Of a stretch of 64,000 nt of DNA, positions 11,264 through 63,573 are shown piece after piece (within the stretch, counting starts at the first letter, position 1; each line of letters starts with the position of its first letter). A program made the position numbers and the translations under genes. The stretch lies in NCBI GenBank assembly GCA_964573695.1, contig CAZNKB010000003.1:36815-100814 (forward strand). The letters are read 5' to 3'. Source of the stretch: an uncultured Gammaproteobacteria bacterium (GTDB lineage Bacteria; Patescibacteriota; Microgenomatia; UBA10105; UBA927). The notes beneath the pieces were generated by a model. It worked only from the letters and a program-made list of their open reading frames with translations. It searched no databases and was not told the DNA's origin.

Positions 11264-11265
11264 CT

Positions 11266-41693: not shown

Positions 41694-41718
41694 GGGATAA
41701 TGACACCATTGTGACACA

Positions 41719-45025: not shown

Positions 45026-45035
45026 CTGTCAGATT

Positions 45036-48330: not shown

Positions 48331-49089
48331 ATGAACCGCCCAACAACAAGCATCATACTTCCCACATATAACGAAGCAGGACATATCACCGCTCTCCTGG
48401 AAGAAATCGTGCGCTACGCCCCTCCCGAAACGGAAATAATCGTTATTGACGATAACTCACCCGATAATACCGGAGCGTTGGCTAGACATTACATCGACAC
48501 CCACCACAAAATGCGGCGTATGCGCGTCATCACCCGCCTGAATAATCGCGGGCTGACCAATAGCCTCATTGAGGGGATAACACGCGCTCATGGTGACATC
48601 ATTCTTTGGATGGACTGTGACTTTTCTCATCCGCCATTCATCATACCCAAACTGATCCGCGCTATCGATCAGGGCGCGGATATGGCGATAGGATCACGAA
48701 ACCACAAAACACCGTCAACTGGCTCCAAAAATACCCAACCACAGGCCCAAACGGTATTTTCACGCATACTCAACATGGTACTTTCCGTCGTATTCGGCTC
48801 TGGCATTACCGATTACACAACGGGCTTTGTCGCGGCAAAAAAAACAGTTCTTCAGAAAATTCCTCTCCGCGGCAATTACGGAGAATATTGCGTGGATTTA
48901 TTGATACGGGCTTTTGGCGCCGGGTACCGTATTGTAGAAATTCCTTTTTTCAGCCCGCAGAGAAAATCCGGAAGCTCCAAAACAGCACCCGACGTATTCA
49001 CATTCCTCCGTCATGGGTCGGGATACGTAAGCACCTTTATCCGGTTACTATGGACACAAAAACTATTCCGCAAAAAAATAGAGATATGA
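48331..49089 (+). CDS. GT2 polyprenol-phosphate glycosyltransferase (DPM1/ArnC-like), second copy
   Basis: TSIILPTYNE...IIVIDDNSPDNT...ILWMDCDFSH. Confidence 0.7.
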   Translation: MNRPTTSIILPTYNEAGHITALLEEIVRYAPPETEIIVIDDNSPDNTGALARHYIDTHHKMRRMRVITRLNNRGLTNSLIEGITRAHGDIILWMDCDFSHPPFIIPKLIRAIDQGADMAIGSRNHKTPSTGSKNTQPQAQTVFSRILNMVLSVVFGSGITDYTTGFVAAKKTVLQKIPLRGNYGEYCVDLLIRAFGAGYRIVEIPFFSPQRKSGSSKTAPDVFTFLRHGSGYVSTFIRLLWTQKLFRKKIEI

Positions 49090-49682: not shown

Positions 49683-51695
49683 CGTAGATTTGGGTTTTTT
49701 ACGAATCCAATAGAATAACGCCATGGCGGTCAAACCGCTTATTCCCGCTCCGATATAGAAAATCGTCGGGCGATACTCCTGGATAACGGTGTGTTTTCCC
49801 TTCGATACAATAAGTGTTCGAAAAGTAGAATTCTCACTGCTATAACTTGATTTTTTACCGTCAATATATACAGTCCAACCGGGATAGAGCACCTCGGAAC
49901 TCATGAGGGTGGTGTCACACGTCGCTTCTACGGATAATTCGATGCGGTTGGGAGAATATGAGGAGATACCGACAGCCCCGCACGCAGGCGACATGAGGTA
50001 AAATCGAGAAAACACTGTCGTATTTTCATAGAGACGATAATCGGGATTATCGCTTTGCCCTATAAGACGATAACGGACGGAGTCGGCAAACGGATCATAT
50101 TGGGAGGGAACCATTATGTATTTGATGTTGAGTGCGTCTATCGTGTCCGCCTGCTGGGGTGTAAGATAGGGAACCTGAACGTCATGTTCAAGCACTAGCG
50201 TACTCCCCTGTTTTCCCAACGCATGGGAAATATACTCATAATACGACCGCAACATGGACGTGTCGTATCCGGTCGCAGAAAATATGCCATAACTCATGAC
50301 ACTATCAAAATCCATGGCGTCACGGCTATCTAGCCACACTCCGAAATTCTGAAGCACCCGATATGGCTCGCGATCTTGTGTCAGTCGTGTCACAAGCTTC
50401 TCATCATGACGCCGGGCTGGAACGGGACCAAGTTCGATAAAGTGCTTCCCGAACAGGAAAAGTTCGATGACAAGTATGCCGGCGACGCCAAGCGGGAGCA
50501 GACGAAACTTTCCTGCTCCCCGAAATATGACGTCCATACCTATCCCGACTAGTCCGGACAGAGCGAATGCCACAAGGACAAGATGCCGGGGAGGAATCCG
50601 AAGATAGTGATACATCGGCACGATGCGCCACAATATATACTGCAGGTCAACCGGCGCGTTGGGGCCAAGTGAAACCCATAGCCCGAAAAGGGCGATACAA
50701 AAAAATCCGCATCCGTAAAAAAACACTCCGCTCTTATGTGCGTCCTTTCGAATGAACGTTATCAAGAAAACTACTCCTACGAGCGCCAATGTGACACCCG
50801 TAATGCCCAAAAAAACGCTATGCTCTATAAAATTGGGGGGCAACCCCCGATACGTACGCTGATCACCGAAAAAAAACGGCTGAAGAAATCCTATGAAGCT
50901 TTCCAAACCCCAGGAACCGTATGAAACCCACGAGTACGGCAAACGGAAAGTCCGTATACTCTGCCGAAAAAATTCCTGTACAGGCACCAGGTGGATCGCT
51001 GCAAGGAAAATACCTATGCATCCTGCAAGGATTACCCGGATGAGCGGAAACGCAGTCTTCGTCATAACCGTACGAATAAGCGCAAATACAAAAACAGCAA
51101 TGAGCGTCATAAATGCCATAGTCTGATACCCGGCTAATAATTGAAACGCAAAAACCACTGAAGCAAGAGCTATGGTTTTTTTCCGCTGTCCCGCTTCAGG
51201 CGAAAGCTGCAGGATATCGGAAAATGCAAGTACGACCCAGGGCATCCAGCTTGCCGAAGCGATGACATCCACATGTCCGGCCCATGTCCTCGCCATAAAA
51301 AATCCGCTCAACCCGAAACTCACACCGGAAACCCACATGGAAAGCGTGTGTTTGGTGAAACGCCTTGAAAGGGCGTACATCCCTAGACACGCCCAAAAAA
51401 TATGAATAACGATGTGCCATGCGTACGCCACGGGAAGCGGCATCACGATAAACAACCACGTAGCCGGATACCACATATTGACCATAGGATCCGCCATGAA
51501 CGGCTGGCCGGAGAACAGATACGTATTCCACCAGGGAATGATACCCTTGTGAAAGAACGTATTAAAAAATTCACGGAAAAAGTAGTACTGACGGCCAATA
51601 TCATCGCCGAAAATCATGTATCCTTCGGGGGGTATCAGCACGCCCCCAAAGATAATGACAAGCAACAAAAAATAACTGACCGCTGCTATCGCCAT
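49674..51695 (-). CDS. YfhO-family polytopic membrane protein (GT-C-like glycosyltransferase)
   Basis: The N-terminal DDIGRQYYFFREFF...GIIPWWNTYLFSGQPFMADPMVNMWYP segment is characteristic of YfhO. About 12 TM helices and a C-terminal soluble domain. Confidence 0.6.
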   Translation of the reverse strand: MAIAAVSYFLLLVIIFGGVLIPPEGYMIFGDDIGRQYYFFREFFNTFFHKGIIPWWNTYLFSGQPFMADPMVNMWYPATWLFIVMPLPVAYAWHIVIHIFWACLGMYALSRRFTKHTLSMWVSGVSFGLSGFFMARTWAGHVDVIASASWMPWVVLAFSDILQLSPEAGQRKKTIALASVVFAFQLLAGYQTMAFMTLIAVFVFALIRTVMTKTAFPLIRVILAGCIGIFLAAIHLVPVQEFFRQSIRTFRLPYSWVSYGSWGLESFIGFLQPFFFGDQRTYRGLPPNFIEHSVFLGITGVTLALVGVVFLITFIRKDAHKSGVFFYGCGFFCIALFGLWVSLGPNAPVDLQYILWRIVPMYHYLRIPPRHLVLVAFALSGLVGIGMDVIFRGAGKFRLLPLGVAGILVIELFLFGKHFIELGPVPARRHDEKLVTRLTQDREPYRVLQNFGVWLDSRDAMDFDSVMSYGIFSATGYDTSMLRSYYEYISHALGKQGSTLVLEHDVQVPYLTPQQADTIDALNIKYIMVPSQYDPFADSVRYRLIGQSDNPDYRLYENTTVFSRFYLMSPACGAVGISSYSPNRIELSVEATCDTTLMSSEVLYPGWTVYIDGKKSSYSSENSTFRTLIVSKGKHTVIQEYRPTIFYIGAGISGLTAMALFYWIRKKPKSTSV

Positions 51696-53344
51696 GGTGG
51701 TAAAGCGTAGATTGTCACCTGATTATTTCTGTAGACCTCTGTGATATATGGATATGCCGCCCGCAGATCTCTAAGTCCCCCGTCCTCACGCTCTTGCGGC
51801 CCGAAAAATATGTATCGAACAGGTATGCTTTGCATCCACTTCTTCGCTTCATCCGGATGCATCGATCCGGAAAAAAACGCTTTGACTTTTTCCTTTTTCA
51901 TCTCAAAGGCGACGGTGTTGTCATGTCCTGCGTAGACGAAATTTCCGGTAAGTGCCGGAATATAATTGCCCGCGGTCGTTTCCGAAAGAATGACACCCTG
52001 TCCATTGGTTTGATCCCGGATAAATCCCATGGCAGCTACGAAATCCTTCAAAGGGTACATCACGAAACTTCCGGTGGGAACCAGCGGCAGCGTGGCACGA
52101 ATCTTATGATCTACGAAGTCTCGCTGCCATAAGTAAGAAGAATACATATGAAACAGTCCTGTTGTGAGAAGAAGCAACGACACAAATACCGCAAGAAACC
52201 GAAGTGGCCGTGCTATGTATAGCTTGAGCATGACGTAAGCGCTGAGCACTCCAAGCGGCACGTGCGGTATCATTTCGGAAAACCGTAGCGGGCTTTGTTG
52301 GGGTACAAACGCAAATATTCCCAGAAGAGCTATCCATGCAAAAACCCAGGATACCGCAGGAAACAATGCCGACTCATGACCCGCAAGCGCCATAATTGTC
52401 CCGATCATCCCGAGAGGCAACATCGGACCGAGAGCGCGCACATACTCTGCGTAATCAAACGGAAGCGGTCGGATAATATCGACCTCTGCCAACCGTTTCC
52501 ATGGGTATATACCGGTCATGAGCGCAAGATACACAAGAGAGGCGGCGCTCAGCATCACAACAAGAGCATAAGGCATGAGATAGGCGCGAAAACGCGTGCC
52601 GCTCATAATTGCATGAATACCCATAACCGCATAAACAAACAATAATCCCGGTGGAAATATCATTCCGAGAACAAAAGCGAAACCTCCCAATATAAGGGTA
52701 CGCATGCCAGATTTCATGGCAGAAGGGGCGGTAAGCGAAATGATTAGAAATATCATCAATACCTGTCCGGCAAGCAAATGCGGAATAAACGTAATCCGCT
52801 GCAAGCTATCCATAACAGACCACCACGCCATAAACCCTCCAAAACGCCATGCACCCAAAACCTCAACAGGTTTCGGCCAGCTACTTGCGGACACTGCAAA
52901 CAAAAACGCCAAAAGGGATGCGCCGAATACATACCGGCTACGGATGTGCTCAAAAGACTTTTGCGAAAACGCCACGATCGCCCACAGCAGTGCTACAGCA
53001 AGCACAATGCGCGCTACGTGATAGATATCCCCCGCGCGGTAGGTGGGCACCCGGACAAACCGCCCAGCTTGCCCCATAAGCAAATACAGCTCGTGGATAA
53101 ACGAACCGTTATGAGATTCCGAGGTATATTTTTCTACAACCGCCCACCTTCCTTCGAGCCCTTCCCTGATGCGGGAAAGGTAAAAATTATAATCTGTCGG
53201 GAAATTGTGCACGAGCTCAAACTGACGGTCAGGACGGAGAAAACGGGCGTGTGACAGTTCATAAAACGTCGGCGCCAGGGAAAACAAAACAAACGCGGCG
53301 ACAAGCAGCGGGAAAATAATCTTTTTTCGTGCCATAATCCCCAT
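51686..53344 (-). CDS. polytopic membrane protein, paralogue 2 of the uncharacterised GT-C-like family
   Basis: VHNFPTDYNFYLSRIREGLEGRWAVVEKYTSESH motif shared with 41719-43329 and 56259-57854. Confidence 0.5.
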   Translation of the reverse strand: MGIMARKKIIFPLLVAAFVLFSLAPTFYELSHARFLRPDRQFELVHNFPTDYNFYLSRIREGLEGRWAVVEKYTSESHNGSFIHELYLLMGQAGRFVRVPTYRAGDIYHVARIVLAVALLWAIVAFSQKSFEHIRSRYVFGASLLAFLFAVSASSWPKPVEVLGAWRFGGFMAWWSVMDSLQRITFIPHLLAGQVLMIFLIISLTAPSAMKSGMRTLILGGFAFVLGMIFPPGLLFVYAVMGIHAIMSGTRFRAYLMPYALVVMLSAASLVYLALMTGIYPWKRLAEVDIIRPLPFDYAEYVRALGPMLPLGMIGTIMALAGHESALFPAVSWVFAWIALLGIFAFVPQQSPLRFSEMIPHVPLGVLSAYVMLKLYIARPLRFLAVFVSLLLLTTGLFHMYSSYLWQRDFVDHKIRATLPLVPTGSFVMYPLKDFVAAMGFIRDQTNGQGVILSETTAGNYIPALTGNFVYAGHDNTVAFEMKKEKVKAFFSGSMHPDEAKKWMQSIPVRYIFFGPQEREDGGLRDLRAAYPYITEVYRNNQVTIYALPPWR

Positions 53345-53361
53345 TCTAACCTAAACCCGGG

Positions 53362-53391
53362 TTGACTTTACACCCTGCACATTGGGATAAT
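53362..53391 (+). promoter_or_regulatory. sigma70-like promoter (TTGACT-18-GATAAT) only 7 nt upstream of the ATG of the RmlC-like gene; implies a leaderless or near-leaderless transcript
   Basis: TTGACT at 53362-53367, GATAAT at 53386-53391, ATG at 53399. Confidence 0.35.
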
Positions 53392-53398
53392 TGATCTC

Positions 53399-53953
53399 AT
53401 GAGTGATGCGCTTACCGATTCGTCGATTGATGCGAAGCAACGGGACAAAGTATACGAACAGGATTATTCCCCCAAACCGACGATTACCGGAGTCCGGATT
53501 CTCAAAATCCGGAATTTCGTGGGAGAAAACGGTGACTTTTCTGAACTCCTGCGTATGACGGAATCCGGGGAAGCAGAATCCATGCCGGATTTTCGTGTCA
53601 GGCAAATAAACAGAAGCAAACAATACAACAAAGCGATAAAGGCCTGGCACCTTCACTATAATCAGGATGAAATCTGGTATGTCCCCCCGGATGAGCACTT
53701 GCTACTGGGCCTCTGGGACGTACGGGATAGTAGCGACACCAAAGGAGTGACCCAAAAAATTCCGCTTGGCGGCGGCAACTCTATCGCAGTCTATATCCCT
53801 CGGGGGGTTGCTCATGGGGCGGCGAATTTCTCCGGCAAAAAAGCAAATGTGTATTACTTCGTAAACAATCAGTTCAATCAGGAACATCCAGATGAGCACC
53901 GTTTACCGTGGGATGCGGCCGGGAAAGAATTTTGGGAAGCCCCGAAAGAATGA
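53399..53953 (+). CDS. RmlC-like cupin (dTDP-sugar 3,5-epimerase / isomerase family)
   Basis: ...RQINRSKQYNKAIKAWHLHYNQDEIWYVPPDEHLLLGLWDVR...IAVYIPRGVAHGAANFS resembles RmlC core motifs. Confidence 0.55.
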   Translation: MSDALTDSSIDAKQRDKVYEQDYSPKPTITGVRILKIRNFVGENGDFSELLRMTESGEAESMPDFRVRQINRSKQYNKAIKAWHLHYNQDEIWYVPPDEHLLLGLWDVRDSSDTKGVTQKIPLGGGNSIAVYIPRGVAHGAANFSGKKANVYYFVNNQFNQEHPDEHRLPWDAAGKEFWEAPKE

Positions 53954-53964
53954 CAGCGCTACCC

Positions 53965-54738
53965 CTACTTCTCTTGTAACATCAAGGGAATAAGTCCTGC
54001 GATTCCTTCTGCCCGAAGAATACCCGTAATAGCCGATTTCCCGTTGGAATTATGCTTGCCCCAATCACTCTCTGCCAAAAAAACATTTCCCTCGCGTACT
54101 CCTGCTTCTAACGCAGGCACCGTGTCTGCGATGAGACTATCCCCTCCGGTCATGACATCTCGGGGCTGTAGGCCTAACCCGCGCGCCGCCGCCACCCAAT
54201 CCCTCGCTTCCTTATGCTTTTGAGCAACCGGCACCACATGGACATGTGACATATACCGCAATAATCCGGTGAAAAACAATTTATCTCCCGTCCATGGGCC
54301 GAGCGCATGCGAATTAATGGCGACAGGTGCCACTTCATGAAGAATGGCCACAGTCCGCAAAGCCCGGGGCACAGGACTTGGAATTGTCTTATATATGGCA
54401 AGTAATGTCGGGGTAAACCGCTTGAGTATCGGGCGCATCCGCCTCCCTAGCGTATTTCCGAGTGAATGAACGATTCTCTCCCACCGTCTCGGATCCACTC
54501 CCATATCCAGATGTATTTGTTTATTGGCGTCATGGACGGCTCCTCTCATAAACGCAAAGGGAATATCCGGTTCCAGCGAGACGACCTGTCGCGAAAAGAC
54601 ATCCATTTGTCGGCCGAATGCATCTCTATTTGTATCGAGCAGAAAATCATCGAGATCAAATACGACTCCACGAATATTTTTCCTTCGGAAATACTCGCGT
54701 ACCTGGGGGACAACACTACCGGTTCGTTCTCGCGGCAT
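53965..54738 (-). CDS. HAD-superfamily hydrolase (phosphatase)
   Basis: From MPRERTGS. Motif I is VVFDLDDFLLDT (DxDxT). Confidence 0.6.
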   Translation of the reverse strand: MPRERTGSVVPQVREYFRRKNIRGVVFDLDDFLLDTNRDAFGRQMDVFSRQVVSLEPDIPFAFMRGAVHDANKQIHLDMGVDPRRWERIVHSLGNTLGRRMRPILKRFTPTLLAIYKTIPSPVPRALRTVAILHEVAPVAINSHALGPWTGDKLFFTGLLRYMSHVHVVPVAQKHKEARDWVAAARGLGLQPRDVMTGGDSLIADTVPALEAGVREGNVFLAESDWGKHNSNGKSAITGILRAEGIAGLIPLMLQEK

Positions 54739-54763
54739 AATCGACGCATTGTAGCAATACATT

Positions 54764-55522
54764 CTATGTATGCGCAATGAGAGTGTCTATCACCGTATGT
54801 ATGCCGCTTGCTTCTATTACGCCCTCCGGCATGTCACCACGCTGATACGGTTCCCATGGACTGGGCAGATGTACCAAATGCACGACTCCCGCTTCCCGGG
54901 CTGCCCTCATATCACCTTGTATACTATCGCCGATGACCAGCACCTCTTGCGGCTGGACGCCGAGGGTGGCAATGGCTTTTTGCCAATGACCGGAATTCTT
55001 GTTTCCCCACTCATCCGCTATTTCCACATGATCAAACATTTCGCCAAGCCCCGTTTCACGAAGCTTGAGTTCTGTATACTCCCGGTTTGCATGGGTAACA
55101 AGTCCTAGTCTCGCAGTACTCTGGCGGAAAAACTGGAGCGTTTCCAGCGCTTTGGGAAAAAGCCCGGGAGACTGCTCATAAATAGAAAGAAGAATGCCGA
55201 GCCCTTCACGGTAGGTTTCTGGCGGCAAACGATATTTGGCACATACAAGCGTTACTAACCCTCCCCAGCGCTCGTTACTCACGGAGTGAGTACCAAAGAC
55301 GGTCATATCTGCTTCGTCGACTGCCCTATCAAGTTCTTCGGGTGATACATCGGGAACACTTGCATGAAGAAATGCTTTAAATTCGCTAATTTTCCCGCTA
55401 TACAACGCATGGGAATCGAGCAAGGTATCGTCCAAATCAAACAATACGGCTTTAATACCTCGCGAACCCAGCCATTCTTTAAGGATGATATTCTGTTCAG
55501 TTACACGTCGTTCTTTCATCAT
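54764..55522 (-). CDS. HAD-superfamily hydrolase, tandem paralogue
   Basis: From MMKERRV. Motif I is VLFDLDDTLLDS and motif IV is VIGDSIQGD. Its 5' leader is homologous to that of the neighbouring HAD gene. Confidence 0.6.
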   Translation of the reverse strand: MMKERRVTEQNIILKEWLGSRGIKAVLFDLDDTLLDSHALYSGKISEFKAFLHASVPDVSPEELDRAVDEADMTVFGTHSVSNERWGGLVTLVCAKYRLPPETYREGLGILLSIYEQSPGLFPKALETLQFFRQSTARLGLVTHANREYTELKLRETGLGEMFDHVEIADEWGNKNSGHWQKAIATLGVQPQEVLVIGDSIQGDMRAAREAGVVHLVHLPSPWEPYQRGDMPEGVIEASGIHTVIDTLIAHT

Positions 55523-55605
55523 ATCCGGCGCATTGTAACAATATATATGTATTTCATCAAACACACAGCCTGGAATATCTTTGTGTAATTCTCTATACTC
55601 GCGCT

Positions 55606-56271
55606 ATGGAAGACTCCAAAGAATCCAACATAGTACTCCCTGCAATTATCATAAGCATCGTGCTTTTTGCCGGTGTCTATTTTGCGTTTCAATCGTCCAA
55701 GTCGCATCAAGGTACAATCGTGCTTCCGGGAGGAATCACCTATCTGGGTCCCACACCGACAGAAAAGCAAACCACGGAAACACCGGCAACAGAGGGTGGC
55801 AATCCTATCCCCGTTTCCAAAGATACGCCCTGGAGTCAACGCCGCGGAGTTACTTTTCCTTACACATTCTCGTACCCGGAGACACTTTCCCTGGGAACGT
55901 TTCCCGATGACCCGTACGACTCGCTCACTCTTTTTTATCCGGGAACGGACGCCAACGCAAATATTTTTTTCCGTGTGGATGACCTTACCAAACTCAACAA
56001 AAAACAATACCTGGGAAAAACCGAGGAATATGCTAAAAACTGGTGGAAAGAATACAATTGGAAAGGTGTCGAATCCGTTACTGCGTTTACCAATAGCAAG
56101 GGGCTCAAAGGGCATAGGGCGAAATACCTAAACGACCAAAACAATACCCCGTACGATCATGTATTTTTTGAGATTCCGGCCTCGGACAATCTCGTCATTT
56201 GGCTCAGCGGAAAACTCTTCAGCCGCGAAGTTTTCGACCGCATGGCTGATTCAGTCTCGTGGAACCCGTAA
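55606..56271 (+). CDS. membrane-anchored hypothetical protein
   Basis: N-terminal TM VLPAIIISIVLFAGVYFAF followed by a soluble domain. Confidence 0.45.
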   Translation: MEDSKESNIVLPAIIISIVLFAGVYFAFQSSKSHQGTIVLPGGITYLGPTPTEKQTTETPATEGGNPIPVSKDTPWSQRRGVTFPYTFSYPETLSLGTFPDDPYDSLTLFYPGTDANANIFFRVDDLTKLNKKQYLGKTEEYAKNWWKEYNWKGVESVTAFTNSKGLKGHRAKYLNDQNNTPYDHVFFEIPASDNLVIWLSGKLFSREVFDRMADSVSWNP

Positions 56272-57854
56272 AGAAAATCATGATAGACGCCGTAATCGTT
56301 AGCATCATTGTCCTTGCCACGGCAGAAAACTACCTCCCGTTTATCATCGGACTTATGCAAACCCCCGATCAGTATGTATTTTTGGGAACGGTGCATCACC
56401 CCGCCGACTATTTCTACTATCTTTCCCAATTTGCCCAGGGGTCATACCGCTTTATAACAACGGTCAATCTTTTCTCAGGGGAACAAGCTACTCCGACCTT
56501 TGTCGGCTGGAGCAACGTGTTGATAGGACGCTTTTTTCATATATTCGGCCTTTCCCCGTTTGTTGCGTATCACGTGAGTGTTCTCCTGTTAACTGCACTG
56601 CTTTTTATTGCCGGCTACCAGCTGTTTTCCACTATGATGCCCAAACGTCCGGCGACACTTGCCCTTTTTCTGTTTGCCCTGTTCCACGCATTTCCGGTAC
56701 TGCGTGACGGCTTACCGTCCTATGGGGATTACTGGAACAACTTTGCCGTCCCTAGAGTCCGATTCGGCGGCGTGCCGCACCAGCTTCTGCTTACTGCGGC
56801 TTCCTTTTTCATGGTTTATTGTTTCAATATCTGGATACAACGTAAACATCACACATGGAACATACTCGCCGGCCTCGGAATATCCAGTCTTATTCTGGCA
56901 AGTCTACAACCCATCTTATGGGTGCTTATCGTGGGTGTAGTTGGACTTTCCGTATGCATCCACACGGTGATAACCACAAAACAGGTCACCTTTGTGCTGC
57001 GCGCCGTGCCCCCGGTCCGTATGTGGCTTACTATCCTCATCAGCGGGGCACTGCCCCTTCTTTACCTCAACCGGCTGTTTTCTGCTCTTCCGTTCTCCCA
57101 GCTTAGAGCGTGGGAGGCTCATGCACAAACGTCCCTCACTCCCGAACATATACTCACTGCTACCGGGCCCGTATTACTGATTGCGCTCTTTTCGCTGCCT
57201 CATTTCATAACACGGCCGTCATTTGTAGCGCTTTTTACCGCGTTGTTTTCCGTTGTCTCCTTCAGTCTCTTTCTCTCCCCGCTCCCGCAGTACCTGGCCA
57301 TAAGCCACGTCCGCTTCATGTCGGCGCTGACCGTGCTTTGTATTTCCAGCATTGCTGCAAAGGGAATAATGTCGCTTTGGCAATCCCGGAACCGCGTGGC
57401 ACGCACTGCAGGAATACTCATTTTTGCAGGCACAGCAGCCCTCCTGATTCCGAATCATTTCAAGACGCTGGAGCTATCAACCCGATTTGATCCAAATAAC
57501 GCCTATTACTACCTCACTAACACTGACTATGCATTTTTGAAAGAAGCGGGTTTAATCGGCACACTTGAGGACACATTCCTCGTCGCCTGGCCGTATAACA
57601 GTATGTTTCCGGCAATTACCGGCAGGCGATCGTACAACGGACACCCGCTCATTACCGTCAACTCACCGGAGAAGGATCGGCTCGCCGCCGCCATTCTCAA
57701 CGGCTCCATGAGTGCGGAAGCAACCCATACGTTTTTTCTGGAAAACCACATTACCTACCTCATCGTACCTGCGGACAACACCTATATTGCAAATCTGCTG
57801 TATCTTACCCGAAAACTAGCTTCAAATAGCCTTGTTTTGTATACAGTACGGTAA
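56259..57854 (+). CDS. polytopic membrane protein, paralogue 3 of the uncharacterised GT-C-like family
   Basis: VHHPADYFYYLSQFAQGSYRF...FSGEQATPTF and PRVRFGGVPHQLLL motifs. GTG start at 56259 or ATG at 56280. Confidence 0.55.
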   Translation: MEPVKKIMIDAVIVSIIVLATAENYLPFIIGLMQTPDQYVFLGTVHHPADYFYYLSQFAQGSYRFITTVNLFSGEQATPTFVGWSNVLIGRFFHIFGLSPFVAYHVSVLLLTALLFIAGYQLFSTMMPKRPATLALFLFALFHAFPVLRDGLPSYGDYWNNFAVPRVRFGGVPHQLLLTAASFFMVYCFNIWIQRKHHTWNILAGLGISSLILASLQPILWVLIVGVVGLSVCIHTVITTKQVTFVLRAVPPVRMWLTILISGALPLLYLNRLFSALPFSQLRAWEAHAQTSLTPEHILTATGPVLLIALFSLPHFITRPSFVALFTALFSVVSFSLFLSPLPQYLAISHVRFMSALTVLCISSIAAKGIMSLWQSRNRVARTAGILIFAGTAALLIPNHFKTLELSTRFDPNNAYYYLTNTDYAFLKEAGLIGTLEDTFLVAWPYNSMFPAITGRRSYNGHPLITVNSPEKDRLAAAILNGSMSAEATHTFFLENHITYLIVPADNTYIANLLYLTRKLASNSLVLYTVR

Positions 57855-57888: not shown

Positions 57889-58701
57889 ATGGTATCTTTA
57901 TCTATTGAAATGACTACTGCCGAATTTCGTCCGGTTGGTGAGATCTTAAACCCCCACGCTCCGAACTTTAGCGAGCTTCACTACCACGTCAGAATCGATG
58001 CGATGACCCCGGAAGACAAACTCTACTGGCTTTCCGATCAAATCCTCAAAGAAGAACACCGCCTGTTGCGCGAACCATACAACATGCCCCAGATCCGCCC
58101 CGAGGCAAAAATCATGTTCCTGACTGGCGGGCCCAAATCAGACGTGACCGAAGCGCGGGATTTCGAGGGGAACTTGATCCACACGCGTCACCTTGATCAT
58201 CCGCGCCCCATGTTTGCCGAAATTCCCGAGGCACTTAGCTCGATTTCCCACTGGTTTGACCTGACAATCCAAAGCAAGGAAAATAATACGGTACCCCCTT
58301 CTCCTGTCGCAGCACTCTCAGAGGTATCTGACGTCGTCTATAACGTCTCCCATCTCCTTACCCTCGATGAATATTTCTGGGAGGAATACAACGAGTACTT
58401 AAAACGCATCGCAGAATCCTTGGGATACAACCTGGATCAGCTCCTCACGATTGCGGTTTATAAATACAACTTTCGCCTGGGTCAGGGCAAATCACAAAAA
58501 AATATCGGCATCGAAAACGACCTGATCGCAAAAGTACTTTCCAAAACCGGTGCTGACGGCAAACCGCTTTTCCCTACTCCCACCGAAGCGCAGTTCCAAA
58601 AAACCTTCCACACGCTTGCCGAAGTGCAAACGCTCCTCAATACCCGCCTGGAACAGCTGCGGCAGGATTATGAGTGGAAACGAAACCCGGTCACCGGATA
58701 G
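57889..58701 (+). CDS. hypothetical cytoplasmic protein
   Basis: 270 aa with no TM. Acidic and helical C-terminal half. No domain recognised with confidence. Confidence 0.45.
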   Translation: MVSLSIEMTTAEFRPVGEILNPHAPNFSELHYHVRIDAMTPEDKLYWLSDQILKEEHRLLREPYNMPQIRPEAKIMFLTGGPKSDVTEARDFEGNLIHTRHLDHPRPMFAEIPEALSSISHWFDLTIQSKENNTVPPSPVAALSEVSDVVYNVSHLLTLDEYFWEEYNEYLKRIAESLGYNLDQLLTIAVYKYNFRLGQGKSQKNIGIENDLIAKVLSKTGADGKPLFPTPTEAQFQKTFHTLAEVQTLLNTRLEQLRQDYEWKRNPVTG

Positions 58702-58751
58702 GCACTGTTTGTGCAATTTCACAAATCAGCAAATTCCCGTATGATAAAAGG

Positions 58752-60602
58752 GTGCGAAAAAATGCCCTTCTCTTGTCTCTTATAGCCATTGGCGTAATGT
58801 TACGCCTTACGCTTATCCCTAACCCGGGTTTTGAAGCGGATATATCATTCTGGAAATCCTGGGGGCTGGCAGCCGTCGATAAAGGAGCGGTCGAAGGGAT
58901 CAAAGTCACGAATAACAATTATCCGACGCCCTTCGTTTACACACTGGGCATCATGGTGGGGATATATAAATTGTTTGCCGATCCTCATAATTTCAACGAA
59001 TACTGGAGCAATACCAATCTCCTGTTTCTTGCGATAAGTAAGCTCCTGCCAATACTGGCTGATCTGGGTATTGCCCTGCTCATATTATATATAGGCAAAA
59101 GCACAACTTCCGCGAGCCGTAAGATAGGATTTCCCGCTGTCTCACTTTCGTTCTTTGGCCTTTCGTTTTACGAACTGCTTGCTACTACTTACCTTCTTTC
59201 ACCCGTTTCCCTCATAGACGGCGCATGGTGGGGCCAAGTCGACAGCGTGGGCGTATGCATATTCCTTTCCGCTCTGGTGTTGGTACTCAAAAAACAACCG
59301 TTCTGGGCAGGTCTTGTCTTCATGCTCGCGATGATGACCAAACTCCAGAATATGATCTACGGCCCCGTGTTATTTCTCTTCGTTTGGCAGATCGCCGGAT
59401 TACCAGGACTCATTCGCGCGGTAGCGGGAGCATTCGTCGGATTTGTGGGCCTCAATGCGGAATTCCTGGCATCTCATAACGCCGACCGGGTATTTGCTTC
59501 GCTGACAGAAAATTATGACTATTTCCCCTGGATGAGTCTTATGGCATATAACCTATGGTGGATTGTCACGGGAGCCAAAGGGCTCATGACGTCAGACAAA
59601 CTCACGGTACTTGGTATACTCAATGCAAAAACCGTTGGCCTCGTATTATTTAGCGCCACCTATCTCTTCGCCACTCTTAGGCAATTGTGGGAAAAATCCA
59701 AAACTGACGACTCCAGTATGACGAAACTGACCCTCGAAAGCCTGATTCTGGTCAACGCCGCGTTTTTCCTCTTCCAGACGCAGTCACATGACCGGTATGC
59801 ATATCCACTTTCCGTTTTTCTTCTCTTATGGGCGCCGTTTTATATAAGTAATCGGCAAACGGTAAACGGTAAACGGCATGTTGTACTATTTACTATTTAC
59901 TATTTACTATTTACGCTCTTTTACTTCTACAATCTCCATACAGCCCTTGTCGTCAATTATCCGCACAACGGATTGCCGTGGCTCTCCTTACTGACGCAAC
60001 CTGTGTTTACCCTAGGAACCGCGTATATGCTGCTTGGATTGTTTGGTGTATTCGTTTATTCACTTCTCTTGACGTCCAAAAAATCACGCGTGCTGTTATC
60101 TATAATCATAGGGCTCGTGTTAGCAGGCCTCCTGGGACTCAACGCCCCGCTACTCACCCGTAAACCGGTCAGCCTGACAACATTTGTGCCTTTTATCAGC
60201 GAGCAGGCATATGGTACTCGTCAGACAAATAGATCCGTCCAAAGTTCATTCGGCGACGCTTACAAATGGACCAGGCTTTCCGTGCAGTATCTGTTTTATG
60301 ATAAGGGCATCGGCACGCACGCACGGAGCAAGCATGTATTTGATATCAATAACAAATTCAAACGATTTACCGTAGATTTCGGCATAGACACCGAGGCAGG
60401 TGCCAAAGGAACTGCTATCTTTGAAATTTGGGGGGACGACCGTCTTTTGTATCGATCAGATATCATGGGCCGATATGATCTGCCAAAACACGCCGACGTG
60501 AATATTGCGGGAGTAAAACATCTATCCCTCATAACGACAGACGCGGGTGACGGCAACTATGACGACCATACGGACTGGCTCAATCCGCGTTTGTTCCCAT
60601 AA
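58752..60602 (+). CDS. GT-C-like polytopic membrane protein fused to a C-terminal NPCBM (glycan-binding) domain
   Basis: About 12 TM helices with an early loop GFEADISFWKSWG. The C-terminal segment KRFTVDFGIDTEAGAKGTAIFEIWGDDRLLYRS...IAGVKHLSLITTDAGDGNYDDHTDWLNPRLF matches the NPCBM fold signature. Start uncertain (GTG 58752, or 58674 overlapping the upstream gene). Confidence 0.6.
   Translation: MRKNALLLSLIAIGVMLRLTLIPNPGFEADISFWKSWGLAAVDKGAVEGIKVTNNNYPTPFVYTLGIMVGIYKLFADPHNFNEYWSNTNLLFLAISKLLPILADLGIALLILYIGKSTTSASRKIGFPAVSLSFFGLSFYELLATTYLLSPVSLIDGAWWGQVDSVGVCIFLSALVLVLKKQPFWAGLVFMLAMMTKLQNMIYGPVLFLFVWQIAGLPGLIRAVAGAFVGFVGLNAEFLASHNADRVFASLTENYDYFPWMSLMAYNLWWIVTGAKGLMTSDKLTVLGILNAKTVGLVLFSATYLFATLRQLWEKSKTDDSSMTKLTLESLILVNAAFFLFQTQSHDRYAYPLSVFLLLWAPFYISNRQTVNGKRHVVLFTIYYLLFTLFYFYNLHTALVVNYPHNGLPWLSLLTQPVFTLGTAYMLLGLFGVFVYSLLLTSKKSRVLLSIIIGLVLAGLLGLNAPLLTRKPVSLTTFVPFISEQAYGTRQTNRSVQSSFGDAYKWTRLSVQYLFYDKGIGTHARSKHVFDINNKFKRFTVDFGIDTEAGAKGTAIFEIWGDDRLLYRSDIMGRYDLPKHADVNIAGVKHLSLITTDAGDGNYDDHTDWLNPRLFP
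59853..59915. repeat. two adjacent heptanucleotide tandem repeats, (cggyaaa)x3.5 and (tactatt)x4, inside the GT-C::NPCBM coding sequence
   Basis: cggcaaa cggtaaa cggtaaa cggcatg ... tactatt tactatt tactatt tactatt tacg. Confidence 0.85.
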
Positions 60603-60633: not shown

Positions 60634-62997
60634 ATGAAGCATATTGAAAAACTTATCGGTATCGGCCTGCTGCTTTTTGCCGTGGTATTCAACCTATGGA
60701 CCTATCGAGCGGAACCGAACGCACTCGTTGATCCGAATGATAATACATTCCAATTCGCTTTGGTTGACAGGACAAACCAGATATTGTCTTTTGCACAACA
60801 AAAGTGCACTGGCATAACCAAGCCATTCTGTGTGTTGTCATATCTTACCGATCACTGGGTTCCTAACTGGGCAGAGGGGTATAACCTGCCTTCCTATTAC
60901 TCGCATATCCCACAGATCGTCATCGTGATAACTTGGAAAATAGCTGCGTTGTTTTCTTCTCACTATTCTCTCTTTACCCATTATCATTATGTAGTTTATT
61001 TCTTGTTGTGCCTGTTTCCTCTTTCCTTGTTTATCGCGCTTCGCATCATCGGCATTTCGTGGGTGACGGCAGGTATAGGCGCTGCATTGGCAACCCACCT
61101 TTCCACAGACGGATTATACGGACTGGACCCCACATCATTTCTTTGGCGCGGGTACGGATTAAGCAGTCAGCTTTTTGCCATGATCTGGCTACCCCTTGCT
61201 GTAGCATATGCCTGGAGATATCTAAGCGGTACTCCGACAAAACAGACACTGCTACTGGCAATCCTCTTCCTTGCGGCAGTCACAAGCGGGCATCTGGGTA
61301 TCGGCATCATCGCATTTATGAGCATCGGCATACTTGCGTTTGGACCGTTGATTCGATCCATACTTACAAAATCCTGGGGCACAAGCTCGACAAACCTCGC
61401 ACTCGCACATACACAAAAACTCCTGCTTGTTTTTGGCGGGGTCGGGCTCCTTCTCGGATATTGGATCCTGCCGATATTGCGGGACGGCAACTATCATAAT
61501 ATTTCCGTTTGGGACGGTATTTGGAAATTCGATTCCTTCGGCTACCGCAACGTGCTGGCGTGGCTATTTAATGGGGCATTATTTGATTTCGGGCGCGCGC
61601 CGATTATGACGGCTCTCATACTACTCGGGGTTTTTGTAGCTGCACAAACCGCATTTTTTGATTTCGCGGTGCTGTTTGTATTCTGGGTGCTTATGTATTT
61701 CGGACGCACGACATGGGGTCCGCTATTTACCCTCATTCCCGGCATGAGCGAATTTCACCTTTCCCGGTTTATCGTCGGTGTTCATATGACAGGATTATTC
61801 CTGATTCCGATGAGCATAGATTGGGTGATATCACGCGCACGCGCGCTGTTTTCGTCTCCCATGCGGCAACCTGCCTCCGTCTGGCTCGGTGTCGCTACAG
61901 CGGTGCTACTCATCGTGAGCGCCTATCCGCAAACCATGCGGTACAGTGCACACAATGATTTCCTGATCGCTCGCGGCAATACGAACTACCAAAGAGATTC
62001 AGAAGATATTGATGCGCTCATTTCACTGCTTCGGACAAAGCTTCAGGAACATCCTGGTCGGGTGTTTGCCGGCAGAGGTGGAAGCTGGGGCAAAAATTTC
62101 CGTATCGCCGAAACCCCGATGTATATGCACCTTTCCACGTACGGGATCCCGGTTATCTTATGGCTGCCGGAAACGTGGTCGCCCAACTCGGACACGGAGC
62201 AGTATTTTTCCGAAAGTAACCCTGCCCACTACTCCCTCTACAATGTGCGGTACGTCGTAACCCAGACAACGCTCACTCCAGAACAAATACAACCCTTCTG
62301 GAGGCTTACAGAAAGCGGAAAGACATGGAAATTATATGAAGTGACGGCTTCTGTCGTCCCAAGCGAAGTCGGAAGATCCGGATATATCACAACCGGAGTG
62401 CGCCCGGCCACCGTAAGCAGTAGTAAGACGGACTATCGATCCCTCATCCGACTTTGGATGCATTCAAAGGCATATAGTCAGGCATTGTTCCCCGAACTTA
62501 CGTTTGATTCTTCGTATCCTAAGAAAACCGGACTTCCCAATTTTCGCATGCTCGATGAGGTGACATACGAGGTGCCGGACGGATCCGTGCACAATCTTTT
62601 CGCCGAAAATCCTCTCTACGTAAGCCCCCTAAGTGATCTAAGTACCTTAGACAAACTAAAAGTTACTTCTCAATCCTCCGACAACGATATGGTGTTTAAT
62701 GCAACCGTCGATGTTCCCAAAAACTGCGTCGAATGCATGGTCATATTGAAACAATCTTTTCACCCGTCATGGCGGGCATCAGTTGATGGCACGCCAATCA
62801 AGCCATTTGCCGTATTTCCGTTCTATACGGCAGTCGACGTACATACCCCAGGAAAACACGAAATCGTATTTTCATACGAACCGTCACTTATGAAAAAAAT
62901 CCTGCTTATCATCGGTATTGTTTCTCTGACATTTTCTGTAGGCATCCTCATCTGGCTAGCCCGTCCCGACAACCTGCGCAGATTCAACCCCGATTAG
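60634..62997 (+). CDS. large polytopic membrane protein with C-terminal extracytoplasmic domain and a final TM anchor (GT-C-like, family not assigned)
   Basis: From MKHIEKLIGIGLLLF (GGAAG RBS 9 nt upstream). More than 12 TM helices, a ~300-aa hydrophilic domain and a C-terminal TM (ILLIIGIVSLTFSVGILIWL). Confidence 0.55.
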   Translation: MKHIEKLIGIGLLLFAVVFNLWTYRAEPNALVDPNDNTFQFALVDRTNQILSFAQQKCTGITKPFCVLSYLTDHWVPNWAEGYNLPSYYSHIPQIVIVITWKIAALFSSHYSLFTHYHYVVYFLLCLFPLSLFIALRIIGISWVTAGIGAALATHLSTDGLYGLDPTSFLWRGYGLSSQLFAMIWLPLAVAYAWRYLSGTPTKQTLLLAILFLAAVTSGHLGIGIIAFMSIGILAFGPLIRSILTKSWGTSSTNLALAHTQKLLLVFGGVGLLLGYWILPILRDGNYHNISVWDGIWKFDSFGYRNVLAWLFNGALFDFGRAPIMTALILLGVFVAAQTAFFDFAVLFVFWVLMYFGRTTWGPLFTLIPGMSEFHLSRFIVGVHMTGLFLIPMSIDWVISRARALFSSPMRQPASVWLGVATAVLLIVSAYPQTMRYSAHNDFLIARGNTNYQRDSEDIDALISLLRTKLQEHPGRVFAGRGGSWGKNFRIAETPMYMHLSTYGIPVILWLPETWSPNSDTEQYFSESNPAHYSLYNVRYVVTQTTLTPEQIQPFWRLTESGKTWKLYEVTASVVPSEVGRSGYITTGVRPATVSSSKTDYRSLIRLWMHSKAYSQALFPELTFDSSYPKKTGLPNFRMLDEVTYEVPDGSVHNLFAENPLYVSPLSDLSTLDKLKVTSQSSDNDMVFNATVDVPKNCVECMVILKQSFHPSWRASVDGTPIKPFAVFPFYTAVDVHTPGKHEIVFSYEPSLMKKILLIIGIVSLTFSVGILIWLARPDNLRRFNPD

Positions 62998-63029: not shown

Positions 63030-63067
63030 TTGACGCTATGTATGAATATTGCTATTATTCATACATA
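63030..63067 (+). promoter_or_regulatory. sigma70-like promoter (TTGACG-17-TATTAT) overlapped by a perfect 12-bp inverted repeat (TATGTATGAATA-7-TATTCATACATA); likely autoregulatory operator of the TA module; leaderless start
   Basis: -35 at 63030-63035 and -10 at 63053-63058. IR arms at 63037-63048 and 63056-63067. Antitoxin ATG at 63067. Confidence 0.45.
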
Positions 63068-63309
63068 TGACTACTATAAATATTTCACTACCCGATAAGC
63101 TGAAAAAACAAGCCGACGCAGTAATATCAGACGGTCACTATGCGTCATTTAGCGACCTCGCGCGGACTGCACTCCGGCAAATTCTTCGCGACCACAAGCT
63201 GGATCGCATGGTGGCAGAAGCAAAAGCAGATTATAAAGCGGGGCGAGGGACACTTCTTCGCAATAAAAAAGATATTGCAAAGTTTATGTCTCAATTCAAA
63301 CCGAAATAA
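63067..63309 (+). CDS. ribbon-helix-helix (ParD/CopG-like) antitoxin
   Basis: MTTINISLPDKLKKQADAVISDGHYASFSDLARTALRQIL is a typical RHH N-terminus. ~80 aa and located immediately upstream of the toxin. Confidence 0.6.
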   Translation: MTTINISLPDKLKKQADAVISDGHYASFSDLARTALRQILRDHKLDRMVAEAKADYKAGRGTLLRNKKDIAKFMSQFKPK

Positions 63310-63312
63310 TGC

Positions 63313-63573
63313 ATGAAAATATTCGCGACTCCGCGATATATCAAGACGCTCAAAAAATTTCTTGGGACGCACCCGGAATATCACGCCATAATTACCCGCC
63401 GGCTTGAACTATTAGAGCAAAGCCCAAATCACCCCACCCTCAGGCTTCATAAACTCGCCAACCGCGAGAACGAGTACTCAATATCCATTGACCATTCTAT
63501 CCGCCTTATTTTCTCCCGAGAAAAAAGCATCTGCTACCTTCTGGAAATCGGATCCCATGATGAAGTGTATTAA
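63313..63573 (+). CDS. RelE/ParE-superfamily toxin (mRNA interferase-like)
   Basis: 86 aa. ...LRLHKLANRENEYSISIDHSIRLIFSREKSICYLLEIGSHDEVY matches the RelE/YoeB/ParE C-terminal pattern. The start lies 3 nt after the antitoxin stop. Confidence 0.65.
   Translation: MKIFATPRYIKTLKKFLGTHPEYHAIITRRLELLEQSPNHPTLRLHKLANRENEYSISIDHSIRLIFSREKSICYLLEIGSHDEVY

Follow-up and report, generated by a model that had tools for sequence, protein, structure and literature searches.

Glycosyltransferases seldom carry carbohydrate-binding modules (CBMs), and CBM51 modules are familiar from glycan-degrading enzymes. Among the membrane glycosyltransferases of the GT-C fold, EmbC and AftD are described as carrying extracytoplasmic CBMs that bind the acceptor and influence the amount and the length of the product (PMC3044687, PMC11127046). 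ORF12 of Citrobacter youngae, the founding member of family GT136, serves as the GT-C enzyme in a periplasmic glycosylation system made up of three components (Kelly et al. 2024, PMC11127046). Its polyprenyl-phosphate sugar donor is supplied by a separate enzyme, and its CBM binds the unmodified acceptor polysaccharide and was dispensable under the conditions tested (PMC11127046). PimE, a GT87 enzyme, is a polyprenyl-phosphate-mannose-dependent alpha-1,2-mannosyltransferase with 12 transmembrane (TM) helices and both termini in the cytoplasm; D58 is located at the tip of its JM1 helix, and D160/Q163, K195 and W319/H321/H322 line the periplasmic cavity (PMC12041525). We describe here a gene in which a GT-C membrane core is joined to a CBM51 domain, also named NPCBM. 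It was found in a 64,000-nucleotide stretch of DNA, which is referred to below as the window. The gene and its parts are as follows.

58752..60602 including the stop codon, + strand: whole gene, 616 aa, encoding a GT-C glycosyltransferase with a C-terminal CBM51/NPCBM domain
58752..60074, + strand: GT-C membrane core of 12 TM helices, PimE/ALG6-like (aa 27-467), from the AF2 model, Foldseek and profiles
58821..59018, + strand: first extracytoplasmic loop (aa 50-115), with an amphipathic helix (54-70) and a buried hydrophobic helix (85-99)
59229..59795, + strand: further conserved outward-facing motifs, W186-G-Q188-x-D190, K223-x-Q225, N293/W295 and H372-D-R374-Y375
60090..60146, + strand: extra helix TM13 (aa 473-491; AF2 helix 469-489), with the cytoplasmic loop SKKSR ahead of it
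60201..60599, + strand: NPCBM/CBM51 beta-sandwich domain (aa 510-642), from Pfam and from PDB sequence and fold matches, predicted to be extracytoplasmic

The gene lies in an intact, uninterrupted open reading frame (ORF) of 642 aa at 58674-60602 on the + strand, the longest start of which is the GTG at 58674; all residue numbers given here (D56, K223, H372, aa 510-642 and others) count from that codon. The GTG at 58752, corresponding to V27 of the longest ORF, is the best-supported start, because the N-termini of the orthologues align there and because this start clears the stop codon of the upstream gene at 58701. The NCBI gene call (P0001, 601 aa) begins at M42, in which case TM1 would be lost. 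Proteins of the same architecture are annotated automatically in databases as "NPCBM/NEW2 domain-containing protein" or "Gpi18-like mannosyltransferase".

An earlier note, made from the DNA sequence, had described the protein as a GT-C-like membrane transferase with about 12 TM helices. The GT-C fold of the membrane core was confirmed by the predicted structure and by profile comparison. The AF2 model (pLDDT 82.7, pTM 0.83) was matched by Foldseek, with a probability of 1.00, to ALG6 (6snh; E 7e-5, TMt 0.61), GPI-MT-I (9wno; TMt 0.64), ALG3 (9s6r; TMt 0.64), PimE (9dm5; E 6.6e-3, TMt 0.56), Emb (7bvc; E 1.9e-5) and STT3; the PIG-U structures 7w72, 8imx and 7wld were matched as well. Family profiles matched GPI mannosyltransferase 1 (23gf/23gx; E 2e-11 to 3e-13) and ALG6 (6snh; E 5.6e-10), the latter in an alignment that begins past the first loop. 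The membrane part of the window protein (approximately 470 aa) had no Pfam or NCBIfam match, and only noise (RICTOR_M, DUF6111) appeared at E values up to 10, a range in which Pfam GT87 (PF09594) was not matched either. Among 87 distant relatives collected with phmmer, GT87 was found in 43 and PIG-U in 10, and others matched PMT_2, Alg6_Alg8 or ALG3. Since the window protein fails the GT87 model, its close orthologues pass it marginally (25.8-28.0 bits, where 25 is the cut-off) and other relatives fit Alg6_Alg8 or PMT_2 better, the family adjoins GT87 and is not clearly inside it.

In place of the approximately 12 helices of the earlier note, the AF2 model and the hydropathy profile together gave 13 membrane helices for the whole protein. 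A count of nine, obtained in a crude hydropathy scan, was an undercount and was superseded by the model-guided map. The core maps onto the 12-TM plan of PimE, to which TM13 and an outside C-terminal domain are added. Relatives that lack the fusion (400-490 aa) stop at about residue 462-465 of the query, i.e. after TM12, and the TM helix that links the core to the CBM is conserved. Positive-inside statistics over 41 orthologues assigned approximately 13 Lys and Arg to about 62 residues of the short loops predicted to be cytoplasmic; the short outside loops contain about two in 31 residues, namely the conserved K223 and R374. The combination of a PimE-like 12-TM core, the extra TM13 and these charge statistics supports a predicted location of the CBM outside the cytoplasm, on the same side as the catalytic loops, as the earlier note had proposed.

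The assignment of the C-terminal domain in the earlier note was borne out by the Pfam scan that it had suggested. NPCBM (PF08305) matched aa 510-640 with a score of 112.7 bits (E 1.8e-32), the gathering score being 23.9, and the match spans positions 14-136 of the 137 in the model. Crystal structures of CBM51 modules were retrieved both by sequence (7js4, E 1e-18; 2vmg/2vmh, E 2e-11) and by fold (2vmi/2vmg/7js4, E approximately 1e-8), with Foldseek TM-scores on the target of 0.80-0.81 for 2vmi, 2vmg and 2vmh and 0.72 for 2vng; the pLDDT over this region was mostly 85-96. The motifs KG(I/L)GTH and DAGDG..DH.DW are common to the window domain and the solved CBM51 modules, and in the forms KGIGTH and DAGDGxxDDHxDW they are conserved. 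Pfam, sequence and fold agree in placing the C-terminal portion, of approximately 135 aa, in the NPCBM/CBM51 family. Those members of the family that have been characterised bind carbohydrate, with galactose, blood-group or GlcNAc-type ligands. The domain is as well conserved as the catalytic core (mean pairwise identity, 64% vs 63%). The earlier note had regarded NPCBM domains as normally found on secreted glycoside hydrolases; they are not confined to such enzymes (PMC8195603, PMC12419801).

A search for orthologous fusions, also proposed in the earlier note, recovered the full-length architecture in 120 of the 120 best database matches, which come from independent assemblies and sources. 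The fusion was present in at least 80 species-representative genomes (Gottesmanbacteria/Microgenomates), as counted in a scan with exact peptide patterns that reaches fairly close relatives only. When the best 150 representatives of 50%-identity clusters were considered, a C-terminal NPCBM was seen in 33, and the single named source of the distant NPCBM-bearing representatives was a Microgenomates bacterium. The gene is a conserved gene of Gottesmanbacteria.

The most conserved region of the protein is the first extracytoplasmic loop, with a mean pairwise identity of 77%. Its helix 54-70 opens with the invariant motif NPGFEAD(I/V)SFWKSWG, and D56 (codon 58839-58841; D30 when counted from V27), which sits in the first turn of this helix in the AF2 model, was invariant in alignments of 41, 54, 87 and 103 sequences. 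In family alignments reaching down to 22-25% identity, D56, W186, K223 and N293 were invariant, and Q188, D190, Q225, H372, R374 and Y375 were at least 90% conserved; N293 and W295 are part of the large TM7-TM8 loop. D56, Q188, K223 and H372 keep the order and a similar spacing of D58, Q163, K195 and H321/H322 of PimE, an equivalence of order and spacing and not a residue-level alignment, PimE not having been retrieved by the sequence profile. By this analogy, D56 is a putative catalytic base, and the residues of the further motifs are putative donor-phosphate and sugar-binding residues.

By its gene content, the region around the fusion gene is a large surface-glycan locus. It contains two Wzy_C genes, several GT2 and GT4 genes, two DegT genes, an acetyltransferase, a PMT_2 gene and candidate polyprenyl-phosphate-sugar synthases. 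The neighbours considered below are the following.

60634..62997, + strand: downstream partner, 787 aa, a probable YfhO-family GT-C protein (large beta-rich domain outside the cytoplasm; C-terminal TM anchor)
55606..56271, + strand: upstream membrane-anchored protein, 221 aa, in which the conserved motif VLPGGxTYLGP(T/S)P precedes a Ser/Thr/Pro-rich linker and a C-terminal domain
51686..53344, - strand: divergent polytopic membrane protein, 552 aa, co-conserved in 66 of 80 loci
48331..49089, + strand: small GT2, candidate polyprenyl-phosphate-sugar synthase, 252 aa (Pfam Glycos_transf_2, 109.6 bits)
39398-40117, - strand: small GT2, second candidate polyprenyl-phosphate-sugar synthase

A copy of the YfhO-family partner was detected in 73 loci out of 80. 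Among the 44 loci that span 15 kb or more, 41 have it as the gene directly downstream, and the remaining three (L045, L051 and L069) have it a further 1.4-5 kb downstream. The 787-aa protein of the window itself had no Pfam match; many of its orthologues (46-61% identity) carry PF09586 (YfhO), and one is named YfhO family protein. Its AF2 model (pLDDT 78.2) was matched by Foldseek to AftD, STT3, DPY19, AftA and PglB. Co-conservation of the 221-aa gene was seen in 59 of 80 loci, and across 57 orthologues Ser, Thr and Pro account for a fraction of 0.34 of the 50 aa that follow the TM helix; this protein is possibly an accessory protein or an acceptor. Neither the 221-aa nor the 552-aa protein had a Pfam or NCBIfam match. 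When the family profile of the fusion protein was compared by hhalign with the neighbouring 552-, 531- and 787-aa membrane proteins, no similarity was found (probability 0.2), indicating that these neighbours are not its recent paralogues. The best NCBIfam matches of the GT2 at 48331-49089 were dolichyl-phosphate hexose transferase, PgfS and ArnC, all under their equivalog cut-offs; judged from its sequence, this small GT2 could furnish a lipid-linked donor. A GtrA-type flippase was not found among the scanned subset of window ORFs.

As a whole, we consider it fairly probable that the gene encodes an active GT-C glycosyltransferase of the Gottesmanbacteria envelope, in which CBM51 holds the acceptor and which is paired with the YfhO-family GT-C protein. 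From the outward-facing Lys223 and His372 and the candidate synthases in the locus, we infer that a lipid-phosphate-linked donor is used on the extracytoplasmic face. A small GT2 encoded in the locus would synthesise the donor, a polyprenyl-phosphate-sugar, in the cytoplasm; once the donor had been flipped to the other side of the membrane, the 12-helix core would transfer its sugar there, on the outer face. The base in this reaction would be Asp56, with which the first juxtamembrane helix begins, and the leaving phosphate would be held by Lys223 and His372. TM13, which is absent in the non-fused relatives, would return the chain to the outside, where CBM51/NPCBM would bind a sugar epitope of the acceptor, which may be a surface polysaccharide, a lipoglycan or a protein to which sugars have already been attached. 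By keeping the acceptor at the active site, the CBM could raise its local concentration or the processivity of the enzyme, and the YfhO-family GT-C protein encoded next door would work jointly with it. Judged by analogy, acceptor targeting is the most plausible role of the CBM; the magnitude of any such effect is uncertain, because the CBM of ORF12 was dispensable under the conditions tested.

The same enzyme might instead act in protein O-glycosylation, with Ser/Thr/Pro-rich linkers such as that of the 221-aa protein as the acceptor, an alternative that we regard as rather unlikely. The YfhO-like neighbour would then add the first sugar (Gal or HexNAc), which CBM51 would recognise and the enzyme would extend, in a manner likened to the streptococcal Pgf and GtrB systems. 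The 221-aa gene, present in 59 of 80 loci and encoding a TM anchor followed by such a linker (fraction 0.34), fits this proposal, but the linker is short and its fraction is a raw composition from the orthologues alone. The titles of 2vmg and 7jrl give galactose or GlcNAc as ligands of solved CBM51 modules, and streptococcal GT-C systems are reported to glycosylate disordered regions rich in Ser and Thr (PMC12041528). The small GT2s and a 673-aa YfhO protein of the window do match PgfS and PgfM1/PgfM2, far under the cut-offs, however, with NCBIfam scores of tens of bits where 500-1500 are demanded. In addition, the two Wzy_C genes and the many cytoplasmic glycosyltransferases of the locus are typical of polysaccharide synthesis, which argues against this alternative.

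There is also a small chance that the protein is a processive polymerase or a controller of chain length, the CBM of which grips the growing chain, a mode of action proposed for EmbC, so that the product would be a long homopolymer, a lipomannan-like lipoglycan, and not single side-branch sugars. In the EmbC study (PMC3044687; via PMC11127046), mutants of the EmbC CBM made less arabinan, and shorter arabinan. GT87 is the closest Pfam family of the relatives and mycobacterial lipoglycan GT-C enzymes use polyprenyl-phosphate-mannose (PMC12041525), and conservation of the gene across Gottesmanbacteria fits a core envelope function. However, the sequence carries nothing that distinguishes processive enzymes from those adding a single sugar, PimE itself adds one mannose (PMC12041525), and lipid-anchor synthesis genes were not recognised nearby.

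It seems improbable, though worth stating, that CBM51 reads, instead of a glycan of the bacterium itself, one of the partner (host) cell to which this presumably episymbiotic CPR bacterium attaches, the protein either coupling contact to glycosyl transfer or serving as an adhesin on a GT-C scaffold. A milder version would be that the gene, together with the genes for the YfhO-like, 221-aa and 552-aa proteins, constitutes an undescribed, lineage-defining pathway for an envelope glycoconjugate of Gottesmanbacteria. A non-catalytic GT-C-like scaffold, comparable to PIG-U of the GPI transamidase and acting mainly as a membrane-anchored surface lectin, e.g. in the attachment of a probably episymbiotic bacterium to glycans of its partner cell, is very unlikely. 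PIG-U was indeed among the fold matches (7w72, 8imx, 7wld) and in the Pfam matches of 10 of 87 relatives, and cultivated Patescibacteria are reported to be episymbionts (bioRxiv 10.1101/2024.11.25.624915). Against a scaffold, motifs essential in PimE (Asp, Lys, Gln and His) stay invariant or nearly so, conservation in the protein is highest in the first loop, and the gene lies within a biosynthetic glycan locus, next to a second GT-C gene. Finally, a merging of two genes through an error of assembly, frameshift or gene calling, in favour of which only the disagreement among the 5' gene calls (601 vs 616/642 aa) can be adduced, was ruled out by the single uninterrupted ORF, the conserved, dedicated linking helix and the occurrence of the same architecture in 120/120 best matches and 80 species genomes.

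Our preferred reading, that of an envelope glycosyltransferase with an acceptor-holding CBM, extends the design of a GT-C enzyme plus an acceptor-binding CBM to another lineage of GT-C enzymes, to another family of CBMs and to an uncultivated phylum. It also illustrates that one extra TM helix is a simple structural way to move a C-terminal domain to the outside. The isolated CBM, a soluble domain of approximately 150 aa, could be used as a probe for its ligand, and hence for the acceptor, among CPR surface glycans. No general concept is altered by the finding. The author of the earlier note was not aware of a description of this combination, and our literature search likewise found no published description of a GT-C and CBM51 pairing; the novelty is reduced, however, in that the principle is known from EmbC, AftD and ORF12/GT136 and the architecture has been auto-annotated.

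Compared with the CBM51 modules of Clostridium perfringens GH95, GH98 and ZmpB and of Akkermansia GH110, the window domain belongs to the same family by Pfam, sequence and fold, but it is tethered to the membrane of its producer on a biosynthetic enzyme and not on a hydrolase or peptidase. The Lipocone enzymes (VanZ, Skillet) resemble the window protein in combining a membrane enzyme, a TM segment and an extracellular lectin domain, NPCBM-like domains included (PMC12419801), whereas their catalytic fold is unrelated to GT-C. PimE shares the 12-TM core, a first outer loop with an amphipathic and a buried helix, a large TM7-TM8 loop, short membrane-embedded loops bearing conserved residues, and the similarly spaced Asp/Gln/Lys/His pattern. 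It differs in having neither a thirteenth helix nor a soluble domain, and the window protein probably does not share its acceptor, a phosphatidylinositol mannoside. EmbC/EmbA/EmbB and AftD (GT53 and relatives) combine a polyprenyl-phosphate sugar donor with extracytoplasmic lectin-like CBMs, but they are much larger, exceeding 1000 aa and containing several soluble subdomains, they carry CBMs other than NPCBM/CBM51, and superpositions of Emb on the model of the window protein were poor overall (rmsd about 20 A). ORF12 is closely alike in layout and size, with a GT-C domain of approximately 500 aa and, C-terminal to it on the outer side, a beta-rich CBM of approximately 150 aa (residues 503-652) (PMC11127046). 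It is set apart in belonging to another GT-C family, in a CBM that by its description is Ig-like and is not stated to be NPCBM, and in being a side-branch enzyme of a Gram-negative O-antigen. As in EmbC, AftD and ORF12/GT136, the window protein carries a CBM-type soluble domain on the predicted extracytoplasmic side, and by analogy this CBM may bind the acceptor glycan of its own enzyme. The window protein gives a new form to a design that enzymes of mycobacteria and enterobacteria already display, and is not a new kind of system.

The C-terminal part of the fusion protein encoded at 58752–60602 (+ strand) had been read in the earlier note as an NPCBM glycan-binding module, and this was fully borne out by a Pfam scan, by sequence matches to CBM51 modules and by superposition of the fold. 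Residues 510–640 matched Pfam NPCBM (PF08305) with 112.7 bits (E = 1.8e-32; gathering score, 23.9) over nearly the full model. Sequence searches with the CBM detected the CBM51 modules of C. perfringens ZmpB (7js4, E = 1e-18), C. perfringens GH95 (2vmg/2vmh, E = 2e-11) and Akkermansia GH110 (8pvs), and the AlphaFold2 model superposed on 2vmi, 2vmg and 2vmh with TM-scores of 0.80–0.81 on the target structure. The ORF is uninterrupted from 58674 to 60602 (+ strand) and comprises 642 aa counted from the first GTG; residues are numbered on this ORF, and numbers counted from V27 are lower by 26. Considering that the N-termini of orthologues align a few residues ahead of the first hydrophobic helix, and that a start at GTG 58752 (V27) avoids overlap with the upstream gene, which stops at 58701, this codon is the best-supported start. 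The 601-aa NCBI gene call (P0001) begins at M42, in the 58674–58800 region, and thereby loses the first membrane helix.

The membrane part alone gave no Pfam or NCBIfam match at E values up to 10, and its initial description as GT-C-like was therefore unverified at the outset; it is now upheld by fold, relatives, profile matches and conserved residues. The AlphaFold2 model, built from a 41-orthologue alignment, had a mean pLDDT of 82.7 and a pTM of 0.83, and its Foldseek matches in the PDB, other than those to the CBM, were exclusively GT-C proteins. These included ALG6 (6snh, E = 7e-5), GPI mannosyltransferase I (9wno), ALG3 (9s6r) and PimE (9dm5), with TM-scores on the target structure of 0.61, 0.64, 0.64 and 0.56, respectively, and further EmbA/B/C, PIG-U and STT3. 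A phmmer search with residues 1–505 (E up to 1e-3) yielded 1607 cluster representatives, 87 of which were scanned against Pfam (GT87, 43; PMT_2, 19; Alg6_Alg8, 13; PIG-U, 10; ALG3, 7). Profiles of the relatives, using sequence only, matched the solved structures of GPI mannosyltransferase 1 (E = 2e-11 to 3e-13) and ALG6 (E = 5.6e-10). The protein itself fails the Pfam GT87 model, and its orthologues pass by only about 1–3 bits (25.8–28.0 against a cut-off of 25). On these scores it is best filed as a GT-C protein adjoining GT87 and ALG6/ALG8, otherwise unclassified, rather than as a clean GT87 member.

The estimate of about 12 membrane helices holds for a PimE-like 12-helix core, but helices of the model combined with hydropathy gave 13. 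The PimE-like features are a long first outer loop with an amphipathic helix (54–70) and a buried hydrophobic helix (85–99), a large TM7–TM8 loop, a loop joining TM11 and TM12, and conserved residues located on short membrane-embedded loops. In alignments extending down to 22–25% identity, the invariant or near-invariant residues were D56, W63, K123, D130, W186-G-Q188-x-D190, K223-x-Q225, N293/W295 and H372-x-R374-Y375. In PimE, the first juxtamembrane helix bears the catalytic base, D58, at its tip; K195 and H322 bind phosphate, and Q163, D160, W319 and H321 are functionally important (PMC12041525). The order and spacing of the key residues are closely similar in the two proteins, and those of the target would be equivalent to the PimE catalytic and phosphate residues by position rather than by residue-level alignment.

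PimE has 12 helices with both termini in the cytoplasm. Non-fused relatives (400–490 aa) can be aligned to about residues 462–465, past TM12, and then stop; the fused proteins add after TM12 a loop (SKKSR), a thirteenth helix (473–491), a short linker and the CBM. Across 41 orthologues, the predicted short cytoplasmic loops contain about 13 Lys+Arg per about 62 residues, and the short outside loops about 2 per 31, namely the invariant K223 and R374. From the PimE-like layout, this Lys/Arg bias, the TM12 end of the non-fused relatives and the added helix, the CBM is predicted to lie on the outer side with the catalytic loops and not in the cytoplasm, the placement that, according to the earlier note, would have refuted its reading; the basis is the model and simple Lys/Arg statistics.

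Orthologous fusions were found. The best 120 matches in a large protein collection were all full-length fusions (52–100% identity), with PF08305 present in all save one partial sequence; where the source gave a name, it was either "NPCBM/NEW2 domain-containing protein" (Gottesmanbacteria, Woesebacteria, Patescibacteria) or "Gpi18-like mannosyltransferase". When GTDB species, each represented by a single genome, were scanned, 80 loci were identified, whose informative titles were always Gottesmanbacteria, Woesebacteria, Microgenomates or Patescibacteria. Many of the co-assembly MAGs carrying the gene (loci L002, L005, L007, L009 and others) are titled "uncultured Gammaproteobacteria bacterium", probably a placeholder or mislabel at deposition. 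When the membrane domain was searched against representatives of 50%-identity clusters, 33 of the best 150 had a C-terminal NPCBM. The CBM and the catalytic core are equally conserved (mean pairwise identity, 0.64 and 0.63), and conservation is highest in the first outer loop (0.77).

The region from about 18 to 63 kb of the window is a single large surface-glycan locus. It encodes two Wzy_C proteins, six GT2, GT4, two DegT aminotransferases, a dTDP-sugar isomerase-like protein, hexapeptide and GNAT acetyltransferases, a methyltransferase, a radical-SAM/SPASM enzyme, and further GT-C-type proteins (PMT_2, PTPS_related, YfhO). Membrane proteins around the fusion gene are as follows.

40164–41819, polytopic protein without family match
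41719–43329, polytopic protein without family match
43310–45025, PMT_2 membrane protein
45036–46724, PTPS_related membrane protein
49674–51695, YfhO membrane protein
51686–53344 (− strand), 552-aa polytopic protein without family match, divergently transcribed, co-conserved (66 of 80 loci)
55606–56271 (+ strand), 221-aa membrane-anchored protein, co-conserved (59 of 80 loci)
56259–57854, polytopic protein without family match
60634–62997 (+ strand), YfhO-like neighbour, beginning 31 bases past the stop of the fusion gene

Probable GT-C-type enzymes are unusually densely packed in 40164–46724 and 49674–57854, where at least seven further large polytopic membrane proteins lie. The YfhO-like protein (787–816 aa) was detected in 73 of the 80 loci. 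Of the 44 loci that span 15 kb or more, 41 have its gene directly after the fusion gene; in the remaining three (L045, L051, L069) it is located 1.4–5 kb further downstream. Many of its orthologues match Pfam YfhO, and its AlphaFold2 model (pLDDT, 78.2) matches AftD, STT3, DPY19, AftA and PglB; the model makes it a probable second GT-C enzyme, with a predicted large outer beta-rich domain. The 221-aa protein, in which a strongly conserved VLPGGxTYLGP(T/S)P motif precedes a variable linker rich in Ser/Thr/Pro (fraction, 0.34), could serve the GT-C pair as acceptor or accessory. Candidate enzymes for synthesis of the lipid-linked donor are two small GT2 proteins (252 and 239 aa); their best NCBIfam matches include dolichyl-phosphate hexose transferase, PgfS, ArnC and AglJ, and all matches to polyprenyl-phosphate-sugar synthases fall below the equivalog cut-offs.

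Immediately upstream of the fusion gene, 57889–58701 (+ strand) encodes a soluble 270-aa protein without Pfam match, found in 16 of the 80 loci; it is 88–91% identical in the four closest loci (66–84% in four more), where the fusion protein is only 64–71% identical. Two tandem HAD-family hydrolase paralogues (53965–55564, − strand; 270 and 266 aa), seen in only 3 of the 80 related loci, sit between the genes for the 552-aa and dTDP-sugar-isomerase-like proteins and the 221-aa gene. Two adjacent 86-aa ORFs at 63049–63573 (+ strand) weakly match a ribbon-helix-helix antitoxin and a YafQ/RelE-like toxin and look like a type II toxin–antitoxin pair; the pair also occurs downstream in locus L011. 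Just upstream of the glycan locus, 10–4194 and 11245–16464 (both + strand) encode giant proteins of 1394 and 1739 aa that bear as many as six Laminin_G_3/ConA-like lectin domains and a domain of the clostridial-neurotoxin receptor-binding type; these proteins may be surface lectins or adhesins. The 1612-aa protein at 6425–11263 (+ strand) is an odd mix of DNA-binding-type and fibre/lectin modules: the N-terminal part has two helix-turn-helix domains of the MerR/HTH_17 type, the C-terminus has an H-type lectin domain, and the protein also contains long collagen triple-helix repeats (205 bits).

As a whole, we favour, with some reservation, an active GT-C transferase that would use a polyprenyl-phosphate sugar as donor on the outward-facing side of the membrane. 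D56 would act as base, K223 and H372 would hold the leaving phosphate, and the CBM51, tethered by TM13, would keep the acceptor at the active site by binding a sugar epitope on it. It is rather unlikely that the acceptor is a glycoprotein linker primed by the YfhO-like neighbour, and we give equally little weight to a processive polymerase whose CBM sets chain length, as proposed for EmbC. A non-catalytic, PIG-U-like scaffold carrying a surface lectin is improbable in view of the invariant catalytic-type residues, and an artefactual fusion is effectively refuted. The soluble CBM offers a practical route to identifying an envelope glycan of this uncultivated lineage.

The observation of a GT-C transferase with a C-terminal NPCBM was thus correct, and its reading largely right. 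The belief that the combination was undescribed stands in part: a literature search of partial coverage found no paper on a GT87/ALG6-like core paired with CBM51, but the principle of a GT-C enzyme with an acceptor-binding CBM is not new, given the precedents of EmbC, Citrobacter ORF12 and AftD, which carries CBMs. NPCBM-like modules have also been reported in intracellular defence systems (PMC8195603) and on unrelated membrane enzymes, to which a TM helix links them (PMC12419801). [quoted passage not shown] In Citrobacter ORF12, the GT-C enzyme (about 650 aa) on which GT136 was founded, residues 503–652 form a CBM that binds unmodified O-polysaccharide (PMC11127046). The layout of the fusion protein, a GT-C enzyme with a C-terminal CBM, is almost identical to that of ORF12; particular to the fusion protein are the combination of CBM51 with a GT87/ALG6-like core, the extra helix TM13, a YfhO-like GT-C gene as fixed partner and, as far as sampled, the restriction to Microgenomates.
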